Positions 1 through 48,165 of a stretch of 64,000 bases of DNA are shown here, piece by piece. The DNA lies in contig CM114271.1 in the NCBI GenBank assembly GCA_050084515.1, positions 39,122,001-39,186,000 on the forward strand, read 5' to 3'. Numbering within the stretch: the stretch's first letter is position 1; each line of letters opens with the position of its first letter. This DNA comes from Blasia pusilla (Eukaryota). Below the pieces are notes generated by a model that saw nothing but the letters and a program-made list of their open reading frames with translations, was not told the DNA's origin and did not search any database. The position numbers and the translations under genes were made by a program.

Positions 1-1445
1 CAGGCACGGAGGGCGATGGGAGAAGCGAGTGCGATGACTCCTATTGTTGATGCTCAGGAGGGACATGTGTCGAGCACATTGTTGGGGGCGGCCACCGTTG
101 TGTACCGCACTCCTTTATTTTCTTCTTCCGATGTTATGACATTGGGGGTACGCCCGCCGAGGCTTTTCGGCTGGCCGCGTCGCTATGTGAGCGCAGAGTC
201 GGAGTTCCTGCATCACGTTCAGAGGTGATTGCAGAGGAGGTGATGGACCTGCCCTTGGAGCGGATGCTCGGATCGTCCACGTCAGATTCATGGCAGGCTA
301 CGGCTGCTAGAATGGCGGAGATGCCTGCTAGACCCGCGATAGAGCGTGCCATGGCTTCTCCTGGTATTGTGTTGCTGGATATCTGAGGAGAGGTCTTGGT
401 GAGTCTTGGAGGTAGAGCTTTTAGTCGGCAGCGTGTCTTGTTGGATTCAGGACCGCAACCCCTGATGTTGGGGAAAGCATCATTCAGAGGATTGGGCTTG
501 ACGAGAGCCGATGTGGAGCGTTTTCCATTCCGGATACAGACATCCTTGGGTGGAGCGAGTACCACACAGTATATCACCCGACATGAGGTCGTGGTGAGGA
601 TTCGCTCGGGACATCCTACTGATGAGTCTGTGGTGCGCGCCAAGGCGATAGTGATTGATGTAGAGTCCTACGACGTCTTGGTTGGTGGAGCAGTGTTATA
701 CCCAATGGGGTTTTCCCTAGATTACTGGGAGAAGTCAACGTCCTACAGACCAGGATGGCAGTCAGGTGATGGGCGCCTTAGCTCATTACCCGTTCGATTC
801 ACAAGTGCAGTGATCGAGCAACGGCCAGGAGAGATGGCCACCTTAGCAGCATTTAGCAGTGCCATCACTTGGCCTAGTGATTTGATTGAGGGACATGTCC
901 ATGCAGAGGATACTCCCGTTCCTGACATTTCTATGGAAAGGAGTGTTATGGTAGGTGCATCATTCTATGGAGGAGAGGTGCTGATGTGGGGCTCGATTGA
1001 GGAGCTTCGACGATTGGCAGATGAGCACGTGCAGACCGCGTGGAGCGAGGCGTTTGCACCAAAACGTGACGGGTCTGAGGAACCGGAGGTAGCAGGGAGT
1101 GCAACGATGACACCCTTGGATACCACACCCATTGTGTGGTGTACCCCGGAGGAGGGTATTCAAGTGTTAGATCTCTTTGGAGGGATTAGCATCGGGTTAG
1201 CCGTTGTTTTGCACGTAGGAGTGCGAGTACAACAGTACCTGTATGTGGAGAGTGATGATGTTGCAAGGCGCGTCTCACTACGACATGTGGCGCAGTTACG
1301 CCTACGTTTTCCCGACTTTTTGTCTGCGTCCGCAGTATAGGGGTACCACAGTTCCCTACCGAGGGATATTTCGTTGTTGGGGGCGCAGGACTTAGAGCGG
1401 GTAGGGACCATTGATTTGGTCATTTCCGGTTGGCCATGTCAGGGC
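1..1445 (+). mobile_element. Decayed Ty3/gypsy-like LTR retrotransposon, copy A: gag-PR linker, aspartic protease and N-terminal half of a C5 cytosine DNA methyltransferase
   Basis: ORF 396-1340 carries the retroviral-type protease motif RVLLDSG...YDVLVG, then DNMT motif I (VLDLFGGI, ~1164-1187) and motif II (YLYVE). Reading through one TAG at 1338-1340 in the same frame gives LPRDIS...IDLVISGWPCQG (catalytic motif IV, PCQ at 1434-1442). Homology stops abruptly at ~1445. No LTR or RT is visible for this copy. Confidence 0.85.
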
Positions 1446-1596
1446 CGATTGAGTGATGGACGAGGATTTTGGTACTTTCTTTCCCTGAAAGTACCAAAAT
1501 AAACAATGTAAGAAGTACTAACAACACCTCCTCAAGAAATCAGATGATCAAAGTCACTTGATAGCCTTGGCCTAGGAAGTATAAATGAGTAGTGTC

Positions 1597-2112
1597 TCAG
1601 TCATCAGAGGACTCTTCAGATATCATATCTGAATATGAATTGATGGTCATGTCTTCTATAAGAGCAGATTGAGATGTTTTTGAAGCCACAACACTTTCTG
1701 CAATTGTAAGAGTAGTAGCACCCTCTAAAGATACTTCCACATTTTCTATATCTATACTTGAGTGAGGTCTAAATCCACATAAATCAAGTTGATCATAAGA
1801 ATCTTGGTCAAGACCACCACAAACCACTCTTCTACCTCGAGCTTGCTTTTCGAGCACTATTTTCCATCCTGGTTTTTCTTCCACATCTGCAAAGAAGACT
1901 TGCTCTACTTGACTAGGAAATACAAATGGCTCTTGTCCAAGAGGTAAGCACCTACAAAAATTTGCCAATAAAAACCCATGCTCATCAAGTACCATGCTTG
2001 GGTCACTACCATTCCATTGTGATTGGACCCACTTCCCCCTCATGAGGATCACTGGTTGGTCTCTAATACCATAGTCCAAAACCAAAATATTACTTAATAT
2101 CCCAACATAAGC

Positions 2113-2115
<3 letters not shown>
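1597..2115 (-). pseudogene. CACTA/En-Spm transposase C-terminal fragment (DUF4216-like)
   Basis: YVGILSNILVLDYG...KWV...DEHGFLLANF...EPFVFPSQVEQVFFAD...GWKIVL is the typical CACTA TnpD C-terminal signature. The N-terminal part is replaced by a (GA)n tract. Confidence 0.8.

Positions 2116-2174
<59 letters not shown>
2116..2174. repeat. (CT)n/(GA)n microsatellite
   Basis: Direct read; one single-base interruption. Confidence 0.98.
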
Positions 2175-3119
2175 GTGCCATTGATTCCATGGCAAAAAAG
2201 AGAAGCATACGCTTTACGTTACACGAGAGAAATGCGTTCACGTCTCACAAATGACCCGCAAATGCTATGGAGAAATTGAAGTAGTAAGGACGTGGGATGA
2301 TTTCAGATGCATTGACGGATCCCATCCTTGAAAATGAGGACCACCATGGTGAAGGTCTAGAGTAGTCTACTTCAACGTGGAAACAGGAAGCCACTGGAAC
2401 GTTGTTCTTCCTTGCCTTAACTTTTCGAATGATCCACCTCCATGCTCCATTTATCCTTCTGGCCGTGCTCCCGCCCACTCAATTCAACGACTCTGAACAC
2501 CTCCATGTCCCACTATCCTTCTGGCTGTGCTTGCGCCCACTCAATTCAGCTACTCTGAGCTTCGGAATCCTAGTTACCATAGCAGCCGCAACAAGATTCA
2601 GGTCAGCAATCCATCCTGAGATCCATCCCAGATTTCCGTTTTGGTTCCAAGGTACCAATCCATCTCACTCCCAAGTTTTCAACAAAGAAGCATTGAGTTT
2701 CAAGCAGACGATCAATCTCAGGTCTCAATGCAACAGATCCGCATGGAGTTTCAATTCAACTCAATTGGAATCCACTGTTGCTGCGTTGCCCACTCCACCT
2801 CAGCCTTGAAGCAATCTCGTCGGATAAAAGAGCATCTAAAGCTTGTGTTGATGCCGATACGCTGAGGACGATGTGTCTCAAGATTCTTCAACAACCTCAC
2901 TTCTAAAAAATGAATGAGGCTAGCGGAATTGAGAGCAAGAATACATGAGAGTAAACAATGGAGAGTGCATGAGAGTAGGGTTTTGCACGTAGGCTTTGTT
3001 GGGGGTCACGATGAGCCTCTTCTTTAAACTTGCACATATTTGACTCCCGCGTATCTCTACAGGGGTACCGGCCACTTGGATCTTCTCTTCTTTCTAGTTA
3101 TATCTTTTCGTTTCGGATT

Positions 3120-3508
3120 ATGACTACGCCTAGTACTTTTATTTCCACCTAATTTATATACTTATTAGTTAAATATTAACCGATTTATCATTATTCTTAG
3201 GTTTTACACGTCATGTACTTCGTTAGTCTATTAGTTATAAAAATTAACTACATTTAGTTAAGAGGACTAGATTTAGTTAACTTCATTTCCTCATAAAATG
3301 TAATATAAAATCATGTAATTTATATAATAATTTTTTATTGCTACTAACAAATTTTAAATTACACGTCATACTTAGTGACTATGTTTAGTGACATACTAAG
3401 ACTATTTGATTACATGTTAGTAATCTTAGGATTTCTAGTTGTAAAACTAGTGCCATAGGACCTAGTTATAAATACTCTAGTTCTAAAATCACCTATTTCC
3501 TTCTAGTG
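3120..3508 (-). mobile_element. CACTA terminal inverted repeat and AT-rich subterminal region (end of the element carrying the 1597-2115 fragment)
   Basis: ...cctatttccttctagtg ends at 3508 and reads CACTAGAAGGAAATAGG on the minus strand. It is preceded by repeated actag/ctagt motifs. Confidence 0.7.
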
Positions 3509-4039
3509 AACTTCAAGTTGTGAGCTTGGATTCTATGGGGATCATTGATGTCCCATCTAATTTGTGAGGTAGATGGGATCCCCATGTTTGCACCCTAAAC
3601 CCAAAAAAAACAAAACAAAACAAAATAGGGCTTAAAATTCCTCCAAAACATCCAAAGTTAAAACTTTAAATGGTTTGTTCTTCAATGTTCTTATTATAGC
3701 CCATTTACAATTGGCATGCCTACCCATAGATGCCCAATATTTACTCAAATACTAACCTTGTGGCTATGAATGTTTGGTTCTACCTCCTTATACCAGGCGA
3801 AGGTAGAACTTGATCACAAATAAATGAAAGTTTTCACTGTCAACAAGTAAATGAAAGTTTTCACTCACCTTGTTAAGGTCGCTCACTGAATTCTTCACTC
3901 ATTTTTGTGCACCATCATTTTCAATTGTTGAATATGATGGAGTTGGCCGCATGCCATCTTCCTCCACAATATTGAACACACAAACAGTTGATATAGTCTC
4001 TCCAAATGCAACCACACAAAAGAAAATCAGGGAGACAAA

Positions 4040-5150
4040 GGTCTCTCTCTCAGTCTCATATACCATCCAACCAAGGTGCAAGGTCTATGGGTACAAGGCT
4101 ACGATGGACACTACTTAATGAGTGCAGTCTCTCTTGACTGGATATCTTGAACAAGCACAATTGAAGAACTTTTTTTGGGGTACTAGTTGATTGGGAACCA
4201 TGCTTAAGTTTGAGTTCATAATGAGTGTTGTCTCCATGAACCACAAGAAAAGCAAGACTAGAACATAACTAAACTCTTGCACCTTGTGTAATGGATGGGA
4301 ATAAAAACTTCTTGCCACTACTTGATCTTGTGCATAAAATTCATGAAATTCATAAAACCCAAGGATAGAGCATATGCCTAACATTGCTAAGTGGCTAACA
4401 CCATAACTTTTCAAGACGTTCTACAACCAAGATTCATTGCCCAAAGTTGTTGAAAAGGTAAGTAGTGTGTATTGGGTATCCCAATGTGGTAAAGTATGGA
4501 GTGTTGTAAAGAGCTTCCTTGTTGAGTCTTGGATCGAAGAGCCATAGGATACATCCATCAACAAAAGACTAGCTAGCCCACTGCTCTTCTTCTTTGGGCA
4601 CTCATCCCAATCTCTAGCATTGTCCAAACAAAGCATGGGGTGTATGGTCGTAACGCTATGCTAGACACTACTTAGTGAAATAATTTGTTTGTCACTTTGA
4701 ACCTTTGCCACTTCTTCCCCTTTGTGCACCCATGCCAATCTCTATCATTGTCAAATGAGGCTATTGGTTGTCTGGTTGCAAGGCTATGATTACAGACATC
4801 AATTAATGAGAACTGGCTCTCTTGTGTGATGATGGGGATGAAACCTATAGACACTACCCTGTGTAAATTTCACAATGTTGAGCAACACCTTATGATGAAA
4901 TGTTGAGGCTAGTAACACCTAAAAGATCATCACATTTAGCAGCCTAGATTCATTTCTTAAAGCTACTTGAATGATAAGTAACATGTATTGGGGATCACAT
5001 TCAAGTTAGGTATATATTCTTGTACAGAGCTTCTTGAACTCCATTTGTGTACGTAGCCTCCAGAACACTATCACAAGTTACCTTCTCCACTTCTGCCACT
5101 CTCTACACCCAGCCCCCCCTCTCTAGCACTATCTAACCAAGGTACAAGTT
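4040..5150 (+). mobile_element. Tandem decayed 3' ends of a non-LTR retrotransposon (LINE ORF2 C-terminal CCHC region plus 3' UTR)
   Basis: Plus-frame remnants KFEF...NHKKS...SCTLCNG, LLCDDGDETYRHY and DSLPKVV...YW.SQ.GKV...VKSFLVESW. A shared 3' motif (caagg..caaggtctatgg...acactactta) recurs at ~4070, ~4630 and partly ~5135. Homologous to 14100-14680. Confidence 0.6.
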
Positions 5151-5792
5151 CTAAGAAGAGAGCAAGATTGTACTCATTTTAATCAATATTGCAGAACCTT
5201 TTTCATCGGTAGATATTTTTCTCATTGTACTTGTTTGTCTATGAATAAAACTTTCTTACCCAACCTATCTCAAGCGACAATCTGGACTTACGAAGCAGAA
5301 TTGAGATAGAGAGACCGGGAAAAAAATCCTAAGGGCAGAATAGTTGGAACTTTCAGCAGTCATGAAATATATCACATTACAATAATGTCAAGAGTTAGGC
5401 AAAGAAAGCAGGTTGCACATGGTTGAGACTTGTGTAATTTCTCATTCCTACAATACTACTGAATTTTGATTCACCACTTTGGAAGAGAGTCAATCAAAAT
5501 GCACAGGCAAACACTTCTCATTGCTTAACGAGGCACTCTAACTTGGCCAATTTTTGGCTATGTTTTGTCGACACACCTGAATCGCCCTTGTCTCAACTCT
5601 ACGTCTTAGACCATGAAGTATCCTTATACTAGATGCTACTTAATAATCTGAGTTCCTCTGCCAAAAGTGGTGTATTCAAGATCCGTATCCAAGAAAGACT
5701 CGCGTGATTTGGACATTCAAAGCCAAAAGGTTGGTCGTCATTGAGTTTGAATCGATCAAAAGAATTTGGCCTTCAAACACGGGTAATTGATG

Positions 5793-6004
<212 letters not shown>

Positions 6005-6439
6005 CTTGAAATCTTGACAACCACACATCTACATGTGTAATTTGAACTTGTTCACATAAACTTGGAACATGCTAAGGTTCTCGCATGTAAATATAATTCC
6101 ATACTTTCTCGCCATGCACTTGTGCCTTAGGACTTTCTCTATTTCTTGCTTGCATCTCTTGCATTCGTGATTCTCGTACTAGTTCCCCCGCTTTTCCTTG
6201 TCTTAGTCCTCCTGTGCTCTTGATGCCAAAACCCTAAAGAGAGAACGTTTGAATAATCAAAGTAGATTTTTTTTTATTACAGTTCAGTAATCTGAGATAG
6301 CTCGGTGATATGGCTTGCATTTGCGATCCTCTAGGTGCGACTTTGAATCCTAGAACCTTCATCTTTTTTGATAAATCATGTATAGTTATGTTGTTCATAA
6401 TTTGGCATGAATGCACTACCTTTGATGGGCATGAAAGGT

Positions 6440-6955
6440 TTTTTTAATATGGAGTCATAAATAATATGACTAGAAGGTAGGTTGAATATGACTACCTAAT
6501 TGCTTTGTTGGCACGTCTTATGCCAAGTCATTAGTGGCCTTTCAAAAAATGACTCCACTAGTTATGAGTCCGTGAATAATAAGACTACAAGGTAAGTTAG
6601 ATATGACTACCTAATTGCGACGTAGGCATGTCTCATGCCAAATCATCACTGGCCTTTCAAAAAATGACTTCACCAGTTGTGAGTCATGAATAGTATGACT
6701 ATGAGGTACGTTAAATATGACTAACTATATTTTTTAGATTATATTGCAATCATATTAATAATATTATAATTTATTTTTTTAATAAAAAATTATTTTTTAG
6801 GACTAAGATGGTCATCTAGTCATCTATGCATGACTCTTAGTAGGTATTATATGACTCTATATAGACTAAAAATTGCATATTTCCATTTGAGTCGTATAAT
6901 AAGTCAACACTTAGTCATTATATTGCTAGTCAAAAAACCAGCTTGTCTTCTACTG
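6440..6955 (-). mobile_element. CACTA subterminal repeats with degenerate TIR
   Basis: About 120-bp tandem units with ATGACT/AGTCAT motifs. Ends in cttctactg (CAGTAGAAG on the minus strand), one mismatch from the CACTAGAAG ends at 3508 and 8905. Confidence 0.6.
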
Positions 6956-7723
6956 AATTCCAAGTATTCCTATTAATGACAAAGGGAATTCAGTCATTGC
7001 ATTATCTCAAGGTAAGTCGGCATATGAACTTCTTTGTTGTTCTCCAAGATTTGAGCTTATATTCTATTAGTGCCATGGTAAGTACATCAACATTTTAATT
7101 CACTAAGTCTATATAATTTGCATAGATGCCCACAGGTAAGGAGAGGGGACTCAATAAAACTCCTGTTGTGTTAGAGCATACAAAGGGGTTTTCTGTTTTG
7201 TATTCCTCTTGTAAGTAATCAGTTGGAAAATTAAGTATTTCTTGTCTCTAAGAATTTTTTACAAGTGTATGAGTTATCTTGCTTTGTATATTTGGTTGTG
7301 ATATTGATCTCTTGGAATGTATCCCCTACATAGCTCAAGCTGTAGTGGACGTAGAGACCTCGCCAAAGATCAAGAAGAAGGGGAAGACGACTACTGAGGT
7401 GGCTGGATGTGTGGGTAGTGCTTCAAAGGGTGAACTAAAATCATTCAACACCAAGTAACAGAGAGTAAAGGCCTCTCACTTCTACATGGCTTGTTTCATC
7501 TTTTTTTTGGCAATATCTAACTCGCTGGTTTTATAGTTAGGAGAGTATTATAATGCAAGGATGCTATCTTATTTCTGATACCTAACCAGGTGGGAATGGT
7601 CAAATTTTCGCGGAATTTGCCAATAGGTGGATGGACCTTCACAAAGGTAATTAGTGAGTGTTTCAAATTCTACATTCCTTGTGAAAGAATATTCATATCT
7701 ATCTAAATCTTTTATATAAATAG

Positions 7724-8010
7724 GAATATTGCAACTACATTGGGGAGATGAAGTTCACCTTACACAACCAAAGCTTAGTCGGAATATCTTGGGATGAGGA
7801 TTAGTTTCAAGTCTGAGTGGTCGAGGCAAGTTCCACGGGAAAGAGATTTCTCTTGGCATGGATAGAGTCAAACTTAGGGATACTACCCACCACCAATACC
7901 AATTATGGGAGCCTAATACAAATGATGACCCTCCCCAATACACACTTGGAGATGCAATTGGATTTGCCATCATTTGGCCAAAGCTGAACTTAAAGAAAGT
8001 AGTTCATTAG
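7724..8010 (+). pseudogene. CACTA TnpA/Tnp1-like C-terminal exon, decayed
   Basis: After an AG acceptor: ...G*GLVSSLSGRGKFHGKEISLGMDRVKL...LWEPNTNDDPPQYTLGDAIGFAIIWPKLNL*, resembling the Tnp1/En/Spm-like domain (FHG...LGDA.G..I.WP). One internal stop. Confidence 0.6.
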
Positions 8011-8508
8011 TGCATGTTTTACATTTGATGACTTTTGTCTTTTTATTCTTTTCCATATTTTCCAAAATTCAGATCAAGGAATGTTCTAAAAATCCTCTTT
8101 GATGAGGAGGTAGTTGTTATGAATTATTTCCTTTTTGTCTCTATAAAGACATTTGTATGGTTTGAATTGTTATTAGAGTAGCCATATCCCAGATTTGGGC
8201 TTGAGTAGAAGTTACAAGTTTGAGAAGATATGATAATCTGATGCCTTGTAGTCCAAAGTGCTTAGTGTGAAAAGTTCTGAATGATTTTATATCCTTATTT
8301 GTTACCTCCTATAGGCCAACTATGCCAAGATTTGGATGGGGAGTATGAATTGACCAATGTCCTTTTAAAGGAAAAAATGTTAATAATTACAAGTGTTATA
8401 ACCACACATATGACTACCCAACAAGAGACATACAAATATATGACTGAAACAATCATATTAAATGACTCTAATATATGCCCATGACTACCAGAATCATAAA
8501 AATGACTA

Positions 8509-8904
8509 TGGGATGAGCAAGCACATACATTGTAACAATGGTGGAACCCAAAGCCGATGAGCGAGAACGAGCTATGGGATTCTCTACAGGTATGACGGAG
8601 GTGCCTTATGATGGTAGAGACATCCCACAGACACATATTGGATGAGGCTATGGACCTGAACTATCTTACTTGGGTGTTCAGTCTTGGTTTAGCTAAGTAG
8701 AGACGAATGCGAGAGGCGTGTGTGACATTAGTACATTACGTCCATCTTGCAGCGCAGCGTCTATCGGGACAGGTGAGACACTGGCTAGGGGTGCAATGGT
8801 AATGGGGAGGCATCCATGGACTCCATGGGATATGTCATGAGAGCACAGAGAGATGGGAGTTCACTTCGCTGATGCAGGACATAGTGGAGTGCCTAGAGAG
8901 TTGG
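8509..8904 (+). mobile_element. C-terminal part of the retrotransposon DNA methyltransferase (motifs IX-X); inverted piece of copy B
   Basis: WDEQAHT/MVEPKADERERAMGFSTGMT...RHILDEAMDLNYLTWV matches C5-MTase motif IX (E.ER.MGFP..yT) and motif X (lG.am), with frameshifts. Confidence 0.75.
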
Positions 8905-9900
8905 CACTAGAAGAAATCATGTAATATATGACTAGACTCAGTAAATGGTGGTAAATGATTGAGTGTGGCTCATTACCATTATAGTCATATCAACCAATAT
9001 ATATGACTAATGAGTCGGCATATATTGACACGCTGGCATCTTACGTGGCAATATGACTTCCACCTAGTTCGACACGTGTAATGACTAAGTCATAAAATCC
9101 TACACCATGATGACTAGGATGCAGTTGAACAAATGTTTGACTTACACGTGTCTCCATCCAAAATTGACATGTGGATTAAATGCAAGGTTACATATGGACA
9201 AAGTCCATGTCCGTGGACATATCCATGTCCATGTCCGTCCTATGGAAGGACTTGTCTATATGGGTCACACCTTTCCCTTCTTTCTCCTTCCCCTTACTTG
9301 CCTTCGTGTTCCATATTCCCCCGTTTCTTCCTCCCTCCACCTCCACTCCCTCCTCCCTCATTGCTCCGCTCATCCTTGCCTTGCCTTCCATCATGGGCTA
9401 TAAGTGTGGGTCCCTCCTCTTGGAACCCATGTCCGTCTTAAGGAAGGACTTGTCCATTTTTGTACAACCATGATTAAATGACTCAATCGTATATTCCATG
9501 TCAGATGATGACTAGGATTTTCATAGACAAACCATAAATTGCCATGTGGTATCTAATAATTACGTGACACGTGAAGGAAATGATCGAGTCGTATGTGCAG
9601 ACGAGGATTTTATTAAAACATGTATTTCTTTGACACGTGTCCCTTATTGAATATACCAGTAACTTGTAAAGTAATACGTATAACTCTGTCACTCATATGC
9701 ATGACTATGGTAGTTATATGTGGAACTCTGCCAGTCATACGCATTACTATGGTAGTCATATGTATGACTCTATCAGTCATATGCATGACCTCGAGAAGTC
9801 GCATCTATAACTCTACAAGTCATATGCATGAATGTGGAAGTCGCATGTATAACTCTGTGAGTCATATGCATACCTCGGCCAATCATACCAATAACTTTGT
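8905..9900 (+). mobile_element. CACTA end: TIR plus subterminal ATGACT-N5-AGTCAT repeats, inside the inverted segment
   Basis: CACTAGAAGAAATCATG at 8905, many ATGACT/AGTCAT motifs, and ~42-bp tandem units at 9660-9890. Interrupted by a MITE. Confidence 0.75.
9183..9472. mobile_element. hAT-type MITE with perfect 8-bp TSD
   Basis: TIRs caaggttacatatggacaaagtcc / ggacttgtccatttttgtacaaccatg; TSD attaaatg at 9175-9182 and 9473-9480. Confidence 0.9.
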
Positions 9901-12760
9901 TATCATGCCTTGTCCTCCTTGAAAAAAAACATGAGTTGACAGAAAACTCACAAATGTAGGGAATGTTGCCTTGTGCTGGCCAACCAGATTGGCCACTGCC
10001 AACAATGGTACATCATCACGAGTAACAACATGAGATTTCCGCACTGAATCCAACATCGCATCCACTGTAAGTAGTGATGGTCTCTAGACTCCATCATAAG
10101 CCCACCTCAGCAACTCGGATGGTAAAAGGTTCGTCCATCACAATCATGGACGGTGTGCGCGCGATCCAACACTCGCCGCATCCAACATCACCGTCGGTCC
10201 TATCCACGATCACACCTGATGTACACTCGCCATCACTTAGGCTCGAATATCACCTAACAATGGGAATTTCTCCAAAATGTAGGCCGAAGAACATCGTTGG
10301 GTAGTCTGCAAGTATCGAAGAACTCGCAACATCTCCCAAAATATGGCTGACCTCGGGTCTTGCAAACCAAGTCCCTGACCCGTCGAAGAATGATCCTGAC
10401 ATGGCCACCTTGCCACCACCAAGTGTATCACACCAACCCTATCTAGATCAAGTGCCCCCAACAACGAAATGTCGCTCATCAATACATGCTAATATCCCCT
10501 AACTACAAACATTGGCAATAACTCATGATACTGCTGGACTAGTCTCGACACATGATGTAATGAGACTCTACGTGTAGTCTCATCTCTCTCAACATACAAG
10601 TATTTTTTTGTACTCATACTCTGGCCTACGATACTGTATCTAACACTTTTCTAATCCCTCCAAAGAAATCTACTATACGTACACCCTCCTCTGGATACTG
10701 CCACACGATCATTGTGGTGTCCAAGGGTGTCAACGTATCCACTCCTAGAGCACGTGGTAACTCTATCCCTTCTCGCTCTAGAGCATAGGCTCGGATCCAC
10801 GCCTGCCTCACTAGCTCATCTGCTCTCCTTTCCAAATCGATGCTCGTTCCCCACAAAGCTAAAGAAGTATTGCCAATAGATGTAGCCATGCTCGTCATCG
10901 CATGACACTCCTCAGGCCTATCCTCTACAAGAATATCCTATGCATTGGCATTCCCCTCTAGTAAAATTTCTTGGCCAACATAATGTGCCACAATAAGCAG
11001 CAACTGTTGTGGTCGACTCTCGAAGTGAACCATCAAGTCTTCCTGCATACTGCACGTACGGGTAGCTGACTGGCTCGTCCCTCACTTGATTTCCAACCTA
11101 GTCCATAGGAGGCTGTCTCCTCCCAAAAGTCAATTTTGAACCCTAGAGTATACAATATGGTAGCCCCTACCAAAACTTCATAAGACTCGGTCGGTGGCAC
11201 AACCGCTCGCGTCCGCACCATTACACTATCCATAGAATGATCAAGCCGAATCCTCACTGCAATCTCATCGCGAGTCATGAAGTGTGTCGGGGATGTGCCT
11301 CCCAATGAAGTATGAATCTAGAATGGACATGGAGTAATCTCACACTTCCGCAATCCCATTGCTACACATGCCGCCTTCCCCAACATAAGGGGTTGTGCTC
11401 CTGAAATCAACTAGCACACGCTGCGGTTGATACACAACTCTGGATGGACCAACCAGCTAGAAAACTCCATCTCGGTTGTGCAAGACAACAACTCCTGGTG
11501 AGACGACAACACGCTCTATTGCTAGTCTAGTTGGCAACTCCGCCACTCTAGCCGCTGCTACATGCCAACTCTTTGTGGCCCTCGTCCTTAGCATATGCTC
11601 TAAGGGTCCATCAACTACATCTCCTGTGCAAGTCTCAACACAGGAAGAACCAAACTCATTGCTCTCAGAGAGCATCACCGCCAATCGGAAAACATCAGCT
11701 AGTCAACCTCCACATGTCAACAAATCTCTAGCCGCAAATAATGGGACCCTAGACAAATCCGTCGCCATCGCTTGTAACTTGCCAGTGCTAGGCCATGTCG
11801 AATGTTGCATAGGCCTTGTAGACGTACTCACCTCATGCGCTCCTCTAAGTGCATCGGCAACTGCAACAATAACACTCCTCAAAGGTCGTCTAGGGACCAT
11901 CGATGGGGTCCAAAGAGCCTCTCACAATGTAAAAGACTGGGGAAGTCTAGCTAGCCTACATGCTTCTCCCCTCTGGGCATCCAACTCCACATCGGATCCT
12001 TGTGGCTTAGAAGCTCTCACCGTGCTTCTCATAATCACTGCATCTGCATCCACCTATGAGGTGTTGCAAAAAAATCCCATACCTCCTAGATCTCCCGCCA
12101 TATCCTGACCTTGAGCAAATTTGGAAGTCAATGCGCCCATTGCACCTAATGTAGATGCTTGCTCGGCCATCATAGCCTGAAGGTGTTGCTCCAATTGAGC
12201 AGTCCTCGCCAAAGTTTCCTCTGATGCAAGTGTTGCACTCGCTTTGGCAGGTGGTAGGGTCCTGAATCCACCACGTCCTCGACCTCCGTCCTGTGCCACC
12301 TCTAGGTCCTCGACCTCCGTATAGGCGCAGCTCGGGGTGGAGCTCGAAACATCTCTCACGTGTGTGCCCATATCTTTGGCAATGATCACACAAAGGTAAG
12401 GGTGGCCTCCCTTGGGCCTCCTCATATACAGCTAATGGTGATGCTTGCACTCCACTCTGATGTCTACAATCTCGCTGACAATGTGATCGTCCAGCCCACG
12501 CTGCCCAACAAGAAATACCGAGCCCTCGGCCCCATAACTCTGTAGTGTGCAAAGATATGAGATAAACTCGTGGTGTCTCCCTCAAAGTGGCGCCTATTGT
12601 CAAAACTCTCTCCTCAAGTATGTTGAGCTCCTACGCTCCGCCAACAAAAATACTGATTTGAGAGTAGGCAAACCAACATGTAAGAGAGTTGCATCTTGCA
12701 CTCTCTTCCGCAACTCAGCGGTCTAGCATCGCATACCTAAATGAAGAGATAGGCCCTCAA
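9901..12760 (-). mobile_element. Decayed Ty3/gypsy-like LTR retrotransposon, copy B: gag (CCHC), aspartic protease and C5 DNA methyltransferase motifs I-VIII
   Basis: Gag remnant ELRKRVQDATL...PTLKSVFLLAER and zinc knuckle CDHCQRYGHTRERC. Protease RVLVD/SGAQPLMLG (frameshifted) and YEVLVG. DNMT: IVDFFGGI (I), LVVARWPCQDHS (IV), GLQDPRSAIFWE...AYILEK (VI), LDAASVGSRAHRP*L*WTN (VIII), then FPTFVSF...GGQGMI. Colinear and homologous with copy A. Confidence 0.85.
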
Positions 12761-12849
12761 GACTCTCTCCTGAGAGACCTGGAGAGAGACCAAGCACTAG
12801 CAAGGGCCTAAGAGGTCCTCAGAGCCAGATGAGTGTCTCCAGTCTTCAC

Positions 12850-13790
12850 ACTAAGAATTTAGCAATCTGAAGCTGATTCCGCCTAGCCATGAATGTGGGG
12901 ACCTTGGGAAGCAGGGTGATCAAAGAGATCCGGGAAGTCAAGCCTAATATGACTGTGAAAGGTGCAGTCGAAGAGGTAATGATGTTCATCATCAATAAGC
13001 CTCGAGTTGCAAAATCTACATAATCTGTCCTCCCTTTTCTTAAGTGAGAATTTTCCTTTCTGAATCTCAAGGTCACTTGAGCCACATCTGAATCTCGCTA
13101 ATGTATGACGTAACTTAGTGGGAGTGGGGGCAGAGATATAAGAGGCTTGCTACACGGATCTGTAGGTGTTCATGAGGGTGTGGTAGCGCCTCATTCTTTC
13201 ACCATTTTTGTGAGATGTATTCCCCCTGCTTTCACAGAGACGCTGGTGTCGGCCCCAATTGATGGCAATGTAATTGCTGTGTAATTGTTCAGCAAGGTCC
13301 TGGTGGATGGCCATAGGTAGGTCGTCGATGGAGATTCCCCATTCCACAAGTCACTCCTTGCAATCATAGTACCAGTTTTTAGCCCCAAGGGTGACAATAC
13401 TTTTTGAAATCACATAGGCCGTGGCGGATAGACAATTGGGATCGTCCTCAAAGATATCCTCAAGGTGTTGGAGAAATGTGATCAGATTTTTAACATCATG
13501 GATCTCAATTGGGACCTCCCCAAACTCAGCCACTATAATTTCTTGGGGAGTGGTTTTCCTAATGCCCAAACTTTGACGCATGAAGACTTTATGGGGACCT
13601 CAAGGCCCTCGGGCCACAAGAAGGTGAATGGACTGTTGTATTTCCTACATGGCCAGGGCATCACATCAGAAGTAAAGAGCCCTGTTTTTCTCCATACCAT
13701 TCATCCTTCATTGGAATATGGTGCATCAATGTGGGATGCCAACACCAAACAAAGATACAGGTTTGAAGCTTCCTCACGAACAACCAGAGT
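12850..13790 (-). mobile_element. Non-LTR retrotransposon (RTE/RTEX-like LINE) ORF2 C-terminal fragment
   Basis: LGIRKTTPQEIIVAEFGEVPIE (post-RT region) and the CCHC finger REDRLCRFCNSRLIDDEHHYLFDC at ~12961-13035; frameshifted. Confidence 0.75.
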
Positions 13791-14099
13791 TAGTGGGAGA
13801 TCAGAACTTGGAGAGGAACCCCTGGAGGATCAACATGATATTGCAAAGTAGAAATGGCGGAGGCACCTCTAGGCAATGGATTCTCATCCCTATCCTAAAG
13901 CAGCGGTGGGAAAATTTTGGACCCAAAGAAGCTCAGTAAAGCCAAATCTTGGACAAAAAGGTTTCAAGAGATTGTGCAAGCAACCAAGGTCTAGGGGGGC
14001 CTAAATAGTGGGAGCAAGATGAGAAACCCACTTCTTTGGTTATGGTATCCAAAAATTGTTAATCATAACCAAAAAAGTATCCAAAAGCTCACAGTAGAA

Positions 14100-14680: not shown

Positions 14681-17221
14681 CTCTGTAGCTATGTTGGTAA
14701 CAGAGTTTATCTTAGCAGATCTGAACCATAAAATATTGCAATCCTTCAAATATGACTAAATTGTAAAACCAATCTGTCAACCCATCAATAGCCAAGATTG
14801 ATGGGAAAGGGTTGTGAACATACCCATAAAAAAGTGTCGAGTATATTGTGATCAAAGATCTATAAAAGCCGCATTTGGTACTTTGATGGGATAAGTGAAT
14901 CCATTGTCAGAAATATTGCGGTCACCTGTATAGCCAGAAGGCACTCATTTGTCAAGATCGCCTCTAATTTCCATACCAATGTTCTCCATTCAACATGACA
15001 ACAATGTGTCTACAGCACCAACACTTAGCATAGATATACTTCATACCAATCAAAACTATAATAAGGTAACTTGAGATTTTGCAGAGCCCAAAGATGCTCA
15101 TTCATCAAATTTTGAAATCTAAATTTACTTCATAAACGTGTGTTCTCCATTCAACATGACAGCAAGGTGTTCAAAGCCTTGACACTCAGCATAGATATAC
15201 TTGATAAAACCTACAATGAGGTACCTCAAGTTTCTAAGCAAGCACAAAGAGCACATATGCAAGATTGCACTGCAAATGATGAAGACAAATGGTTAGAATT
15301 GGATAGTATGTGTAGAACCCCTCATGGATCAATTTCACAACCACACACTTGAAACATTTTCAGCTGACCCAATTAGGTTGGGCTCAAAATTGTCTTGCCA
15401 AATCGATGGAAAACACCACACTATCTAACAAGGAGTTGAATTGTAGGCAGTGCGACTTTAACCATAGTCACAACCAATGGCTACATATTTGCGAATACTA
15501 AAAGCCTCTGCGTCACAAATTTGTGATTATAAGACTCCCTGGAGGATTGAAGACTGTGAGTTGTTCCAACTCGATTATTCTTTGAATCCTATGAAACTCT
15601 TAATTACGATTGGAGGTACAAGGCAGCAAGTCTTCTTATGAACTCCTCTACCAAAAATTGTTAGGGTATTGGATAATATTTACAATGAGTAAATGTGCTA
15701 AAAAGCATTGCAAACACGGACCAAGGTTTCAGGGGAAGAGCTATTACTCACAAAATTTGATAATGATTCCAAATAATTGTGTAAGTGTGGAAATTGATAG
15801 TTAGATTGAACCATATCTTTATACGCTGCTCCCTACCGCCTGTACCATTCATGAAGAGATCCATATGCAAAGTGTATAGCTCATCTGTTTTAGCTTCTTC
15901 ATTCCTTGAGACTCACTCTCCCCACTGATTGTCTTCTCGAGCAAACAAAAGCGATTAAGAGCAGACACTCTGAGCAGGGAAGAAATTTTGTCTCAAAAAA
16001 TACATGGTACGTTCCAAAAGGATAAAAAAGGAACGAGTGCACTCCTGTAGCATATATCACATCATTGCTTCAACATTGCCAATATACTTTCGTTAGCACA
16101 TATGCAAGAAGAATCGAACACGCGTGAAGAAAGTTCAATCATAGGCACGAATTAGTATCTTCCAGCTTTGCAAGCATGGGTTCTGCACTCTTCTTTGGGG
16201 GATCTCACTCCACCCATTCCTAGTCAATTGTGTCGGTGATGTTTCTTGACTTCTTCAATGCGATTTGCTATTTTTTAAAGGACTTTTCCTATTCCCCCTT
16301 TATTCATGGATGTCTTCTCATATTTTTAGGATGCTATTCACCAAGACCAGTGAACAAGGAAGGAGTGGAAGTAGGATATTACAGGAGGGATAGTTCCCCT
16401 TTTAGTGTGTGTGATTGCGAAAGAGAGTGTTAGTGTAGAGTTCCTAGCTCTCCGCTAAGAAGCTCTTCACAATGCAATTAGCCATATCGGAATCAACTTC
16501 AGTAAAATTCTAATTGGTTGGGGCAGCAGGTGGCAAGTAATCATTTTGGTTACCGTGCTTGCAAAACAAATGTGGAAGAGAAGATATATCATACTCCTAG
16601 CATCGACATTGTAGGAGTTCATATGCAGACATAGCTTCTGGAACAAAACTTCTTAAAGGTAATGCGTTAAGAGAGGAACTGCTGTACTCGTCTTCAAGTG
16701 CGCTTCTTAAGGTTTCATACTTGTAAAGGTCAGCCTCCACAACCTGCATGCCCAGAAGCGATGATCATAGCATGCGACGATGGCTATTGAGGAACTTCAA
16801 CAATTCACAGAAACTGGAAAGTTTGTTTGTGTTGTGACCGCTTGTTGATAGCCGATCATGCCTAGACATAGTTCCTCTCTTAATGCAATTATGTCCACAT
16901 AATTGGTCTTAAGAGAGAAAAACTCTTCTTCATTATTTGTATAAAACCTACCGTTATGTGAGAAACTATATATTAACATATGAAATGATCCAAGGCCAAA
17001 AATATAAATAATATAAAGTTAGGTTGGTACATAATTTGCTAGCTTAAGCAACATTTAAAAAAGAATATATTGTTCACTCTACAAAAGGTAGTGTAGAAAG
17101 TAATAACATGCGTTAGAACATCTACCAACATACACGTATGATATTAGAACTAGTCTATTTTAGATTTGGTTTCCAAAGTTTCCTTAGGATTTTCAGACCA
17201 CTTTTAATGTTAGGAATTCCA

Positions 17222-25973: not shown

Positions 25974-28900
25974 CAGGGTTCGGGAAGTTTTTTTTATTTG
26001 TCGGCCCAATACCGGGAAATGTCAAATTTCCCGGGTATTTTTTTTATACCGGCGGCGACCGGAAACCTTTTCAGTTACTGGTTTTTTCCCGAACTTTTTT
26101 CCCGGGCAGTTTAAATCTGGCAGGAATGTTTTTCCTTTCGGTCTATTTCTGATATTATTTTTTTCCAGCCACATTTCTGCCAACTTTTTTTGGCCTAGCC
26201 ACATTTCCGGTTCCATTTAAGCAACTTCAATTGCTTTTTTTTGTCACTAACATGAAGTTTCCTTCAAGTCTCCCCGGTACTCAACTTCCCAACCCTTTTC
26301 TCTGTCAGTAACTTCAAGTTTCCCTGGTACCCAACTTCCCAACCCTTTTCCCTTGGTTTCATTTCAGGTAACTCCTACTTCCAACTTCCTAACTTCCTAG
26401 TTCCTACATCATCATCCTTGGCAGGAGTTGAACCTGGCAAGCCTCCCACCCAGCCAAAGATCCTAAATTCCTAATTCCCTACAAAGGATTTTATCCTCAT
26501 CCTTGGCAGGAGTTGAACATGATTTCTCTCCCACCAGTTGGGAGCCAAGGATCCTACCCCTCTAGAATACTTGGAGCCTCACTGCTCCAAGCATTCTAGA
26601 AGGGTCCAACTCCTACTTCCTAAAATACAAAGGCTAAGATGTATCAGCAGCTTCCTCTTCCACAGCTTGGGAGACATATCTATGTGGATTTGCAAACAAG
26701 TACCTAAAATGAGCAGAATTCTTCCACAAGACCATAGACTCAGACAATATATCCTCATAATCAGAGGACGATCCTTCCAAGGCAATCCTCAAAATTGCAT
26801 CCAAGTACTTGGTGGTCAACTTGTTACGAGATTTAGTCTTGATCATATTGTGAATGGAAAATGCTCTCTCACTTATGGCAGTACTAACACACTGGACCCT
26901 AGCTACATTTGCCAAAATCAACAACTTAGAAAATTTACATTGTAGAGAGGGACTCCAACTCACCATAGCCCACAAGTCTCTGGAGTTGCGATCCTTCCAC
27001 TCAGTGGTAGCCATCAATTTGAAAGACTGAAACTCTTGCTTTATAAGTGGAGAATTAATGATTGCAGGTTGTAACTGACCTTGCAATGGCAACTGGGCTC
27101 CGAAAAAACCACACAAATCATCTAAATCTTTACATCCCCAGCTACTGAATCCCACTTGCCGTGATGGCATGTGCAAAGGATTAAGGATTTTCATTGCACC
27201 AACGAGGTTGTTGTCTCGAAATCAATCATGTAAAGCTGCACACACACTTTCAGCAAACCTTTTCTGAAAGAACAAGGCACCCTCTGAGTCACTTCCTGTC
27301 TGATCCCGAGACATACATATGCTATGAAATTTGTTTCCCCTGATCTAAGACTGTAAACGACGAAGATAACCACCAGGTGGCCCAAAGTCAAGAAGTATAT
27401 GGTAACATGTTTCTTCAAAGAAGGTTGAAGCATTCAATTCATGAGTTTCCATCACAAAATTCATGCTTATCCTAGCTACCTCAGAATTGACAATGCTCCC
27501 AATTGTGCTAACATCTACAAACTGGTACTGAAATATCTTACTCAAACTAGCAAGCATGGAAAGAATGTCAGCCAAAAATTATAATTGATAGATCATTTGG
27601 AATGATCTCAACTTGTTAAACAAGTTGGCAGCATTCCCATCATCCTCTGAAGAAGATATATCTCTGAAGTACGTTTTTACCGATTCTTAAGAATCACACA
27701 ATGTGGTCACAGCTTGCCAACGGGATAACCATCGAACCTTGTGGTATCTCTTCATGACTCGCTAGGGGTCATTGAATTTTTCTTGCAAGGATAACAAGAT
27801 TGTTTTCCTCTTGGAGGACCTTCTAAAGTAGCTAGCTACAGCATTGAGAATCCAGTCAACTTCAGAGGAGATTGACTTACAATCAGGAGCTTTGGCAGTT
27901 GATAAAGCGGCCAAATTTATTCTATGGACTACACAATGAATTGAAAGAATGTAGGGATTTACCTTCTGCCTCAATTGAGAGGCTACCCCTGTCTGGCTAT
28001 CTACCATTGTTGAGGCACCGTCAGAACCAAATGCAACCATTTTGGAGAATTCCAATCCTCCATCTTTCAGTAGTTGCAAAAAAAATTTGGTAATAGCATT
28101 AGATTATTTTGATTCGCAATGAATTAATCCTAGAAAACAGGATTTTTCTTGGCCCTCTTCAATGAAAGTAGTGAACATGACCAGATGCCCTGTTATGGAT
28201 ATGTCAATCGACTCATCGATCAAAATTCCAAAGAAAGGAGAGGCTTGAACTCTAGCAAGACTTCTACTAAGTAGGACTTGGCTAATGAAATAAGACATTT
28301 CACTGCAACTCTTCTCATCTTGGTATAGGTCTTTGGTAATGGGATCATTAATAGAGACTAACAACTTACAAAGACTGGAGAATTTGATAAATGGGATAGC
28401 CTCCTTCGCAAGGAAGTATGCACATTTAAACAATGTCATCAGAGCGGCTTCGCAGGTTCGATTGGTTGTGGCAATAGCCTTGGCCATGGACTTCTTACCC
28501 CCATTTTGCAGCCCATGCAAGCTTGATATGCTCATTAGACTTGGCATGATCAGTAAAGGCTGAAAACTTACAATTAATTGTACCATCCCTGGCAAAGACA
28601 CTCTTCCCCTTCCCCTTCCTACGAACTTTACAAAAGATTCTACCAAGGTCAAGAATCAAATTCAATCCAATCATACATTGAGTACCATACATCCTTCCAT
28701 GCAACACAAACTTTCTTAGGTAAAGCCCCAATCCTTCCTGATGGAGTTTGCTCTTCTTTTTCATCAGAAGAGCCAGATAATAAGATAATGTCTGGCCCTT
28801 TCTTTCCTTGTTCCTTACGTAGGAAAGCGGTCATAGTTTTTTGTCTCTTTGCCATCCTTGATCCGATACTCCGAGAATCCGAGGGAGACCAATGTCTCCA

Positions 28901-45052: not shown

Positions 45053-47856
45053 CCTTGCCGATTAATCATTCAATTTCCGCACCACACACGAAGGTTCGAG
45101 GATGGGTTTCCCATTAAGAATTCATATATATGTATTATTATAACATAAAATTATAAAATAAAATGATATTACTATAGTACGACTTACAAGTATTTACAAT
45201 ATAAAACAATTCACCCTAATATTGTGTGCGAATCGGCGCGATGTGTCGGGTCCACTCGAGAGTATCCTTCTACTTCGTTGACTTAATACCAACCGAATAA
45301 AAGACGAAATTTTCCCCCACGCAGACACCACATGTGACTTGTTTTGCCACTTGATAAATAATGACCTTAAGGGACCGTGCGATCCACGGATCCCTTGTTG
45401 ATAGTTCAAGTTTAAACGCACCTCTCCTTACCAATCTTTATACGACCCCTTAAATGACCTAAAGTATTTGTCAAAGAAGTCCAATGACACGTACCCCCCA
45501 AAATAGCCAGACGACATGACATATCCTCTGGCTCGATCTTTTCTTCAGCAACTGCGAGGAAAGAAGGAAAGTGGGAGCTAATCTTTTCTGGTCTCGTTGT
45601 AGCCTTCAGGTTTCGACTCTTTGTACTTCCGATGGGTTTTCCATCACACGTTTTTTTCGAAGTGCATCATTATAAAAAAGCTAATCGCGCAGAAGGAGTG
45701 GGACGGAACATGAGACCCCAACGGACTGGGAGAGATTCCTCCAGAGCCTCCTTCATTATCTTGTCTACGTCTGCGAAAAACCGCTACATCTGCCAGAAAC
45801 ATGTGCCGATCAGTTCCTCTCGACTCGCGATCTCCCGATCGTGCACTACCTCCGATCCACTTCATTCAGAATGCCGATGCGATGGACTGACTCGAATCTC
45901 CTGATCGCCCTCCGATCCGCGCTCTCGCTACCAGAAGCAGGAGACAATACGAAGCGCTTCGGTCTTCCGTATTCTCTCGCGCTCAGGGCTCCATACAACC
46001 GATTTCCGTGATCTTGCCTTTCGGTGATCCTCACTCAATGTGTCCGGGCAATAACTCACGCCGTACATTCTCTCTCTGTCAGGATATCGTAAACGAGTCC
46101 AAACATATCGTATCGTACCCACAAATAACAATAATTCTGTCAGTCGGTGGCGGGGCTCAGTCCTCAGGAGTCTCGCAGTCTCACTGCGAAATTCACTCTT
46201 GCTATTCCTCATTATACATACACTCGTCACTTTTCGTCTTCTCATCTAGAGGTTAATCGAAGGGGGAGATCTTGGCTTTCGAGTAAATTTATGTGGTCAC
46301 GATAAAAAATTTCTCGAAAACATTTTCTTCTTGCATTCTTGAATACTCTTCTTTTGAGTTGTTATTATCTTTTTTTTCCTCTTCTCAAATTTCTTTTATA
46401 ATAAAGTGGATATATTTTTCTCTCTCAAAACTGTTGTCCATAGATGAGTTATTTCTTTGCAGATAATATCTGTGAAAGTTGTCTCGTAAGCCTAAACATG
46501 GCACCGGTGGTAGATTTCCCTTAAATAACATCCCCGTTAACCACAAGGGCTCTTAAGTGGACAGGTGTCAACAAAAGAATAGCCAAAAAGAAGGATAGAT
46601 GTTAACATTTGAAGAAGATCCTGTGTAATACTCATATATATTACAATTTCTGGCTGTAAGATACCCATATTATATAACGGTTATGGGGAAAAACTCCATT
46701 GACCCCCTGGGTACAAGTATCTAATTTCCGTGCATAAGCATCCACGTTGAGTTTAGATTGTTCTTCACCATTGAAGTTGATGTTAGGCCTTCAGCTTTGG
46801 CGGATTCATCATTACTGCTGGTTATTATCTATACGACTAGTTGGTGCCGTGCCATTCAAAATAGTGTATAATTTTGAATTATTCATCCAAAGTGTACAAT
46901 TTAATTTGAGCTATTCAATTGGCTTAAAAAATCAGTGATTCTATTGGTTGAAAAGGCATATGTCAAGAGGAGAGGTAATTTCAAAATGAAGAGGCACTCT
47001 CCAATAGTAAGATACATTATTGGGATTACCTCCTCTTTTAGTTTAACTCTAAATAGTCGCAAAGTATCTTGGATTTTGGGTTAGGTGAGTGTCCTCTTCT
47101 TATCGGGTTTCGTTCTAAATAAATTCCATAGTCCATTTGATTTGAGAAGCTTTCATAAATGAAAAAAAAGAATGGTGACTGATTTTTTTAAGTGTGAAAT
47201 TTTTGCAACATTAATATTTAAGGTGTTTGGTGCTCATTCGCATTGTAGGCAAGTTTTCAATAAGTTTGAAACGAGTGTCAAAAGATTAATCACAAGAAAA
47301 ATATTTATAGATAATTCTTAGTATCCTACTAACCAAAAAAAAAATGAATGCACAATTTAGTTACTTAGGATATGACATGGCTCTCTAGTTTGAAGCCTCC
47401 TTTATTAAATGAAAAAAAGCCTCACATCTTTAGAATATATGTTGTCAAGATAGTAAGGCTCTTCATGTGAATGGAAGTTCACACTCACTTAAAGAAGTGA
47501 AGCTTTCAAGAAGGTTTTTTTACATATACCATTAGATTTTATGAAAATCGATTGAGTGCATCTCACGGGCGGGAAAATATAGTATTATTTTGGGTAGATG
47601 CTTGTGGAGGAAACTCCATTTTAGACCTTAGAACCCAATGTATTTAAGGGCTACTGTTAATCTCCATTGAACTTCAATAACCGTTTCATGTAATGCTTCT
47701 TTTCTTTTCTTTCCAAGGTGTTGGAAGGTGATAGGACTATTCCATAGGAACCTCTTGTGAGAGTTATTTTTTTCATCTCTTTTTCTTTGGCGAGGAGTGA
47801 AAGTGGGAAGTTCTCCTCTAGGGAACTTTTCTTGTAACTTTTGCAAGTGTTAAGGG

Positions 47857-48165
47857 CAAGGTTTCATGTGGACAAAGTCAATGTCCGTGGACTTATGTGC
47901 GTCCTATGGAAGGACTTGTCCGTATGGGCCCCACCTTCCACTTCTTTCTCATTCCCCTTACTTGCCTTCGTGTTCCATAGTCCCCCGTTTCTTCCTCCCT
48001 TCACCTCCACTCCCTCCTCCCTCATTGCTCCCCTCATCCTTGCCTTGCCTTCCATCATGGACTAAAAGTGTGGGTCCCACCTCTTGGAACCCATGTCCGT
48101 GGACATGTCCAGACTTGTACGTTCATGTTTTTCCTAAGGAAGGACTTGTCAGTTTTTTGTCCTTG
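47857..48165. mobile_element. hAT-type MITE, same subfamily as 9183-9472
   Basis: Near-identical pyrimidine-rich interior (cttacttgccttcgtgttccata...cctccctcattgctcc). The right TIR is eroded and no TSD is recognisable. Confidence 0.8.

Follow-up and report, generated by a model that had tools for sequence, protein, structure and literature searches.

The stretch analyzed here, referred to as the window, comprises 64,000 nucleotides of the Blasia pusilla genome (assembly GCA_050084515.1, contig CM114271.1, positions 39,122,001–39,186,000, forward strand), and it opens with a fragment of a retrotransposon polyprotein in which a protease-like domain and a cytosine DNA methyltransferase (DNMT) domain share one reading frame. 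This fragment, termed copy A, lies at positions 1–1445 of the plus strand; very probably it derives from a Ty3/gypsy-type long terminal repeat (LTR) retrotransposon that carried a DNMT3-type C5 methyltransferase between the protease and the reverse transcriptase (RT) of its Gag-Pol polyprotein, akin to the elements known as Gypsy-Dnmt3. Copy A is itself a dead, pseudogenized fragment, incomplete at either end, and what makes it of interest is the family to which it belongs.

Frame 3 of the plus strand is open in copy A from 387 to 1340 and, past a single TAG (1338–1340), continues to 1499. Within this frame, a retropepsin-like aspartic protease domain (387–800, with LLDSG at 438–452 and YDVLVGG at 669–689) is followed by a linker (801–1121), kept across the family in the alignment and matching no Pfam family, and by the N-terminal third of a DNMT3-type C5 methyltransferase (1122–1445), which contains motifs I–IV (DLFGG of motif I at 1170–1184, YVES at 1242–1253, with YVE at 1242–1250, and GWPCQG of motif IV at 1428–1445), and whose homologues carry PF00145. 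The initial annotation, made from the letters alone, had described one frame linking LLDSG, motif I, YVE and, past a single TAG, motif IV; this was confirmed at 387–1445, and the protease-to-DNMT reading frame is far beyond chance. The extent of the copy was corrected: the plus-strand frame of 387–1445 stood, and positions 1–386 were found to belong to the same polyprotein, covering the part between gag and protease, as read from open reading frames (ORFs) at 1–228 (frame 1) and 51–386 (frame 3) and from the alignment to the Marchantia protein P0088. This upstream part has a frameshift near 130–230 and an in-frame TGA at 384–386, and its start is clipped by the window edge. Residues 537–998 of P0088 align to positions 138–1481 at 50% identity. 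At the other end, the methyltransferase stops directly after motif IV, all later motifs being gone, and a break point follows at 1446–1520, where family homology ends and unrelated AT-rich DNA starts, with G+C content and homology both dropping out at about 1445–1520. Adjoining this break, an ORF on the minus strand (1597–2244) resembles DUF4216 (E 4.8e-5, 24.3 bits, under the cut-off of 30.6) and is broken by a (GA)n run; the DUF4216 domain is typical of CACTA-type plant transposons.

A tblastn search of the window with copy A revealed a second copy, termed copy B, on the minus strand at 40–51% identity. Copy B is more decayed than copy A; it occupies 9901–12716, and residues 204–1140 of P0088 align to it colinearly from 12716 down to 9901. 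It includes the C-terminal part of gag with a CCHC knuckle (a CX2CX4HX4C string at 12364–12390, without a Pfam match), a protease-like domain that has lost the catalytic Asp (LISGAQ at 11393–11410), and DNMT motifs I (10656–10670), IV (10393–10410), VI (as EKF, 10264–10278) and VIII (10147–10164), all interrupted by many stops and frameshifts. One of its ORFs, 10237–10488 on the minus strand, matches PF00145 (E 2e-5, 24.7 bits versus a cut-off of 22), and Pfam searches of the remaining pieces of copy B produced no match.

The C-terminal end of a DNMT domain is found on the plus strand at 8523–8900, with motif IX (ADERERAMGF) at 8553–8582 and the motif X region at 8644–8673. In the coordinates of P0088, residue 1140 lies at 9901 on the minus strand and residue 1148 at 8538 on the plus strand, leaving 7 residues between them. 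Since the protein coordinates follow directly on copy B, this segment was read as the tail of copy B, most likely turned by an inversion of about 8523–9900. A plain continuation of copy A was considered for the same segment and rejected, as 150 residues would be missing. With this tail, copy B holds the whole set of DNMT motifs from I to X (I, IV, VI, VIII, IX and X) in damaged form, motifs IX and X being inverted. Between 8900 and the break at 9900 lies roughly 1 kb of unrelated sequence with many 'catatgac' repeats. Directly 5' of copy B, ORFs at 12846–13939 on the minus strand, two of which were searched against Pfam without a match, resemble what we take to be the C-terminal zinc-binding tail of a long interspersed nuclear element (LINE) reverse transcriptase. 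In a FastTree phylogeny, copy B falls into a clade of 8 (support 100) together with Marchantia and Calypogeia proteins, the metagenome locus L007 described below, and three unnamed proteins. The window thus holds two diverged dead copies of the family, copy A at 1–1445 on the plus strand, and copy B at 9901–12716 on the minus strand plus 8523–8900 on the plus strand.

Protein searches with copy A identified 85 homologues of similar length (best E 2.8e-101, 48–52% identity) and 20 longer ones (best E 5.7e-111), many of which carry PF00145; where a source is named, it is Marchantia polymorpha, Calypogeia fissa or a Sphagnum species. Proteins of Marchantia, Calypogeia, Sphagnum and Closterium all show the link between protease and DNMT. 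In the Marchantia models P0095 and P0104, the DNA_methylase domain is followed by RVT_1 and then RNase H, at residues 460–529, 833–919 and 997–1098 (RT_RNaseH) of P0095 by Pfam. Because gene models on repeats can be chimeric, the family was also scanned for at the DNA level in metagenome contigs, giving 74 family loci. In one of these, L007, positions 321–6809 read through as one frame, 2163 codons long and interrupted by two TAGs, in which Pfam located zf-CCHC (387–403), DNA_methylase (1052–1161, E 6.8e-12), RVT_1 (1520–1676), RNase H (RT_RNaseH_2 and RT_RNaseH, 1739–1868), Integrase_H2C2 (2031–2086) and rve (2105–2162), only the start of rve being seen at the contig end. The Pol order of protease, RT, RNase H and, last, integrase is therefore found in L007, and it is colinear in many loci. 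Single tblastn segments bridge DNMT and RT in other loci, for example L008 (residues 306–2163) and L011 (residues 170–2123). The zf-CCHC match at 387–403 (P0107) has an E value of 5.4e-7, and it was seen again, in two stretches, on nucleotides 600–1800 of L007 (E 1.6e-8).

Across the metagenome loci, RT was found downstream of DNMT in 32 of the 37 with at least 1500 bp left (misses: L026, L032, L052, L058 and L067), and upstream of it in none; the protease was found upstream of DNMT in 39 of 43 testable loci (misses: L047, L050, L051 and L061). A PHD finger follows the integrase in 18 loci (Pfam E 1e-8 to 1e-10), for example at L019:10661–10960, L011:6477–6776 and L025:4311–4904, and of the 8 loci that have an integrase without a PHD finger, 7 end within 291 bp of the integrase match. 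RT and RNase H of the relatives match Pfam RVT_1, RT_RNaseH_2 and RT_RNaseH, and the elements were assigned to the Gypsy type by domain content and order. As seen in these relatives, the full element measures about 9 kb and reads, in order, gag (CCHC), retropepsin, DNMT3, RT, RNase H, DDE integrase and C-terminal PHD finger. In two loci, L022 (956–1423/5488–5021) and L055 (9652–10119/14184–13717), a common 468-bp internal inverted duplication (92% identity) lies after RNase H, and the two look like the same rearranged copy or subfamily.

These counts bear on whether the link seen in copy A could be a local accident, in which a fragment of a host DNMT3 gene came to lie beside a retrotransposon protease by nested insertion or chimeric assembly. 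Such an accident would fit a copy that stops right after motif IV and adjoins unrelated DNA, in a window that is a mosaic of transposon remains. It is refuted by the single frame from gag through integrase in L007, by the segments spanning DNMT and RT, and by the protease and RT counts; the same one-frame junction also recurs in the second copy of the window and in four named genera, and the probability left to a local accident is negligible. The junction between protease and methyltransferase is accordingly not confined to the window locus, and the data support it as a conserved trait of a retrotransposon family, as judged from the relatives. The proposal of the initial annotation that this land-plant genome hosts a retrotransposon family with its own DNMT was likewise supported, by the two window copies, the named relatives, the 74 metagenome loci and the L007 frame.

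The protease was identified through distant relatives. P0288 contains Asp_protease_2 at 763–849 (E 2.9e-6, 28.3 bits versus a cut-off of 24.3), P0296 scores 29.7 for gag-asp_proteas versus a cut-off of 28.2, and P0287 is also above the cut-off for one of these two families. The LLDSG region of copy A (residues 15–134 of its translation, P0001) aligns to residues 764–882 of P0288 within a match of 33% identity and E 9e-58 over its whole length. By this transitive link the domain is accepted as a putative retropepsin, an assignment weaker than the rest.

To place the methyltransferase among the known types, P0087 was compared with PDB sequences by phmmer, and the best matches were DNMT3A (3.6e-11), DNMT3C (3.8e-10) and DNMT3B (6.4e-8), followed by tobacco DRM (1.2e-6), HaeIII (4.5e-5), and then DRM2 and HhaI (0.012), with DNMT2 at 1.3; no DNMT1 or CMT was among the 51 matches. 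An AlphaFold model of the L007 DNMT domain (pLDDT, the predicted local distance difference test, 85.8) was searched with Foldseek, and every one of the matches listed was a DNMT3A, DNMT3B or DNMT3C (33 rows to rank 50, similar chains being omitted; best 3.2e-20, target TM-score about 0.8). ESM Atlas searches with the DNMT part returned generic DNA_methylase clusters, one of them streptophyte and two viral. In intact relatives, motifs I, IV (PCQ), VI (ENV), VIII (RxR), IX and X occur in the canonical, non-rearranged order, unlike in DRM. By both the sequence ranking and the fold ranking, the family domain thus appears closest to DNMT3 among the types compared. For copy A, the methyltransferase identity is taken from its relatives and from the PF00145 match of copy B.

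Catalytic residues and selection were assessed on the same domain. Across 12 sequences, 32–44% identical to the first of them, the Cys of motif IV, the Glu-Asn of ENV and the two Arg of RxR do not vary, and the S-adenosylmethionine-binding motif I is kept in the family. For the DNMT domain, comparison of L007 with nine other loci gave dN/dS of 0.119–0.197 (Nei-Gojobori); ratios were obtained for 40 of 55 pairs, pairs with L041 having pS above 0.75 and giving no dS. Between sublineages, these ratios show purifying selection on the DNMT domain. The domain might have been kept as a structural or binding module that no longer catalyzes methylation, and a published assay points that way: in yeast, no methylation could be detected for the DNMT domain of KnitGypsy-Dnmt3, from the charophyte alga Klebsormidium nitens (de Mendoza et al. 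2018, PMC5890265). The authors of that paper call the result inconclusive, and human DNMT3B was likewise inactive in the same assay, so the negative result is uninformative. With the catalytic residues invariant and motif I kept in members this diverged, a pseudo-enzyme is unlikely.

The abundance and expression of the family in the organism of the window were assessed by placing reads of DNA and RNA runs on positions 1–5700, a span that leaves copy B outside. For the DNA run, X1, 2467 contig pieces were placed, 767 of them at 99% identity or more, and the summed word depth, which is no copy number, was 3000–13000 over 1–1520 versus 0–13 over 1521–5700. This contrast shows that the subfamily of copy A is highly repeated and little diverged in the organism. 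From three RNA runs that bear the same species label as X1, 35, 46 and 38 reads were placed, almost all on 1–1520. All but one of these reads match at 95–99%, and therefore come from other copies; most have the first mate on the minus strand, which, provided that the libraries follow the usual stranded protocol, corresponds to sense RNA. The copy-A subfamily is thus transcribed at a low level in this organism, from near copies.

These data also bear on domestication, by which a gag-protease-DNMT gene would have been recruited as an extra de novo methyltransferase of the host, the window copies being its decayed paralogues. Several Marchantia models, such as P0088 (1278 aa), do end after gag, protease and DNMT without an RT, and the DNMT domain is under purifying selection. 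Gene models on repeats are, however, often cut short, and at the DNA level RT follows DNMT in most loci with enough sequence; both window copies are broken, and the copy-A subfamily, with its thousands of contig pieces in run X1, does not behave like a host gene. Domestication is therefore very unlikely.

Terminal repeats were read from metagenome loci, none being assignable in the window. L066 has direct repeats at 1679–2017 and 10353–10691 (339 bp, 92% identity, TG...CA), L002 has LTRs at 6945–7251 and 15692–15998 (307 bp, 94%), and L059 has LTRs of 159 bp (91%). A direct repeat of 105 bp (10238–10342 and 10693–10797, 95%) stands on both sides of the 3' repeat of L066, so that the locus shows a full A-coding-B-A-B layout. 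The B-A-B layout at the 3' end is also found in L035, L025 and L072, whose A pieces are 84–91% identical to the LTRs of L066 and L002; of the 17 loci in which sufficient sequence follows the integrase, 4 show it, and these 4 belong to a single subfamily.

Several results weigh against reading copy A as part of a methyltransferase-bearing Gypsy element. Pfam produced no match to copy A alone, even at E up to 1, so that the profile search proposed for it in the initial annotation succeeded only on relatives and on copy B; and no RT, RNase H, integrase or PHD finger of the family was found anywhere in the 64-kb window. The membership of copy A in a full element is for these reasons inferred from relatives. 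In L007, among the closest relatives, the protease reached Pfam E values of 0.012 and 0.033 only, under the cut-off; a profile of seven protease sequences retrieved no protease from PDB sequences, giving chance-level matches at E of 0.65 or more, and a fold model from the same number of sequences had a pLDDT of 40.8, too poor to use. Most family copies are dead, 3 of 30 full-length DNMT domains among the loci being free of stops. dS between sublineages was 1.66–2.42, near saturation, and the dN/dS ratios are therefore rough, while within a close subfamily dN/dS rose to 0.33–0.93, which fits decay after insertion. CpG observed/expected ratios were 0.82 for copy A, 0.64 for copy B, 0.71 for the whole window and 0.28 for the L007 ORF, and 0.56–0.59 for L066 and L002 versus 0.44–0.47 in their flanks; CpG depletion thus gave no consistent sign of self-methylation across copies and flanks. 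To these are added the negative yeast assay of KnitGypsy-Dnmt3 described above, and the fact that the kinship with this element is argued from shared traits and not from a sequence comparison.

A mechanism can be proposed tentatively. The DNMT would be synthesized within Gag-Pol, released by the protease of the element, and carried along with the replication complex, where it could methylate the new cDNA of the element or its fresh insertion, as de Mendoza et al. proposed; the PHD finger linked to the integrase may recognize histone tails and in this way select or mark the place of insertion. Translation in Gag-Pol, release by the protease and action on the element's own cDNA or insertion are together possible, and on balance doubtful. 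The enzyme could instead act mainly in trans on the host genome, disturbing or reinforcing host silencing; since a domain embedded in Pol would be expected in small amounts, staying with the particle, this is given a rather low probability.

The remainder of the window is a mosaic of transposon remains, other plant-type transposons included. The only clear host gene noticed is an expansin gene at 57891–58943 on the plus strand, composed of two ORFs (DPBB_1, E 3.3e-19; Expansin_C, E 1.2e-26) that are separated by what looks like an intron, at about 58467–58550. Plus-strand ORFs at 9089–9473 and 47854–48282 have a common proline- and serine-rich translation, belong to no Pfam family, and mark a further repeated element. 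On the minus strand, 26634–27221 resembles a hAT-type dimerization domain (20.9 bits versus a cut-off of 21.4), and together with the neighboring ORF 28104–28655, which has no match, it is probably a decayed hAT transposase. Long (GA/CT)n microsatellites lie at 2100–2175 and 5795–6001.

A HMMER search with the L007 DNMT domain retrieved 4273 cluster representatives at E of 1e-3 or below, 237 of them at 1e-30 or below, and showed that the domain also occurs in a second layout. Among the matches listed of at least 900 residues (68), 61 have the DNMT after RT/RNase H and/or directly before the integrase (type II), 6 have it after gag or protease (type I), and 1 is a DNMT alone; the named type I representatives are from Closterium (NIES-53, -65 and -68). 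The type II proteins P0120, P0121 and P0127 contain RVT_1, RNase H, DNA_methylase, integrase and PHD, and P0127, a 'pol' of the chlorophyte Scenedesmus sp. PABB004, has the only named type II host. Type II forms a larger and more diverse Gypsy-type set, comprising P0115, P0120, P0121, P0127 and about 57 further representatives. Compared with the family described here, type II has a homologous DNMT3-type domain (35–42% identity, E about 1e-61), the same kinds of RT, RNase H and integrase, and likewise a C-terminal PHD finger, whereas its DNMT lies between RNase H and integrase instead of between protease and RT. In a FastTree phylogeny of 160 DNMT domains, a quick tree, one change separates the two layouts, with 38 of 38 type I rows in a clade of 50 (SH-like support 95); the tree has no outgroup, and therefore no direction of change was drawn from it. 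A broader history, plausible but somewhat short of probable, would be that DNMT3-carrying, PHD-tipped Gypsy elements are not a single capture in Klebsormidium but an old green-plant lineage that crossed onto land with the bryophytes, that there the DNMT changed its place a single time, leaving the RNase H-integrase junction for the protease-RT junction, and that the elements are still high-copy and transcribed in at least one land plant.

Cytosine methylation is the main weapon of the host against transposons, and a transposon with a de novo methyltransferase of its own is therefore a paradox. If this broader history is true, no transposon-encoded DNA methyltransferase would have been known from land plants before these elements, whose absence there has been stated in print. 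The known streptophyte case is an alga with few genetic tools, and the range would now widen to land plants and Closterium. As the elements are also in Marchantia, a transformable model with established knock-outs, methylomes and transposition assays, what a DNMT does for the transposon that encodes it would become directly testable for the first time. With the PHD finger, one and the same element holds both a reader of histones and a writer of DNA methylation, and the two fixed positions of the enzyme in Pol, together with this finger, may point to a long-lived 'writer plus reader' module. For annotation, caution is advised, as a bryophyte gene model labeled 'DNA (cytosine-5-)-methyltransferase' can turn out to be a piece of retrotransposon Pol.

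Among the closest known systems is KnitGypsy-Dnmt3. The initial annotation had stated that DNMT-bearing retrotransposons were reported in dinoflagellates and Klebsormidium by de Mendoza et al. (2018), and this was correct: the paper places the acquisition of KnitGypsy-Dnmt3 'in the K. nitens lineage', and its figure legends (Figs 1e and 4c) give the element a DIRS-element repeat structure with Gypsy domains (PMC5890265). As far as the text and legends of that paper go, both it and the family described here have a non-rearranged DNMT3-type domain inside an intronless Pol ORF with Gypsy-type domain content, low Ka/Ks (published as below 0.2 for KnitGypsy-Dnmt3, and 0.12–0.20 between sublineages here), and, in one subfamily here, the A-coding-B-A-B repeat layout, which is the best evidence here that the family is related to the Klebsormidium element. 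The paper text does not say where in the K. nitens Pol the DNMT lies, and the position between protease and RT can be given for the family here only. No K. nitens protein was found by name among the named matches or among 30 clusters looked up, most matches bearing no name. The hosts of both are streptophytes, and they differ in that the present family occurs in land-plant lineages (Marchantia, Calypogeia, Sphagnum and the organism of the window) and in Closterium, and KnitGypsy-Dnmt3 in K. nitens.

The words Marchantia, liverwort and moss are absent from the text of de Mendoza et al. 2018 deposited as PMC5890265; later papers, in the parts accessible, cite 'streptophytes (Gypsy-DNMT3)' with land plants unnamed, and one paper states, in its accessible part, that such elements are absent from land plants. 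In a literature search that did not extend to subscription papers, Repbase or supplements, retrotransposons with a DNMT were not found reported from bryophytes or any other land plants. By sequence and domain order, the family would extend the Gypsy-Dnmt3 kind to liverworts, mosses and Closterium, and two of its details were not found described, namely the protease-DNMT-RT order versus the RNase H-DNMT-integrase order, and the terminal PHD finger.

Three further systems share parts of this architecture. The host DNMT3A/3B/3C catalytic domain is the best sequence and fold match of the family domain, and motifs I, IV, VI, VIII, IX and X have the canonical order in both; identity is about 20–22%, the family domain has no adjoining PWWP or ADD, and, unlike host DNMT3, it is embedded in a retrotransposon polyprotein whose PHD finger lies far off, after the integrase. 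SymbioDIRS-Dnmt3 of Symbiodinium resembles the family in having a DNMT3-type domain in Pol and the 'A-coding region-B-A-B' layout given for it in the legends of de Mendoza et al. 2018, and its domains methylated CG de novo in yeast (PMC5890265); it is a DIRS element with a tyrosine recombinase, in place of which the present family encodes a DDE integrase (rve), together with RT and RNase H of the Gypsy type. The EpiLTRs (bioRxiv 10.64898/2026.05.21.726589) are likewise LTR elements with a DNA methyltransferase and a chromatin reader. According to the accessible part of that preprint, in which the Gypsy-DNMT3 of streptophytes counts as an acquisition of its own, the EpiLTRs join a DNMT4-related DNMT to a Dam-like adenine methylase and a chromodomain, whereas the family described here combines one DNMT3-type enzyme with a PHD finger.

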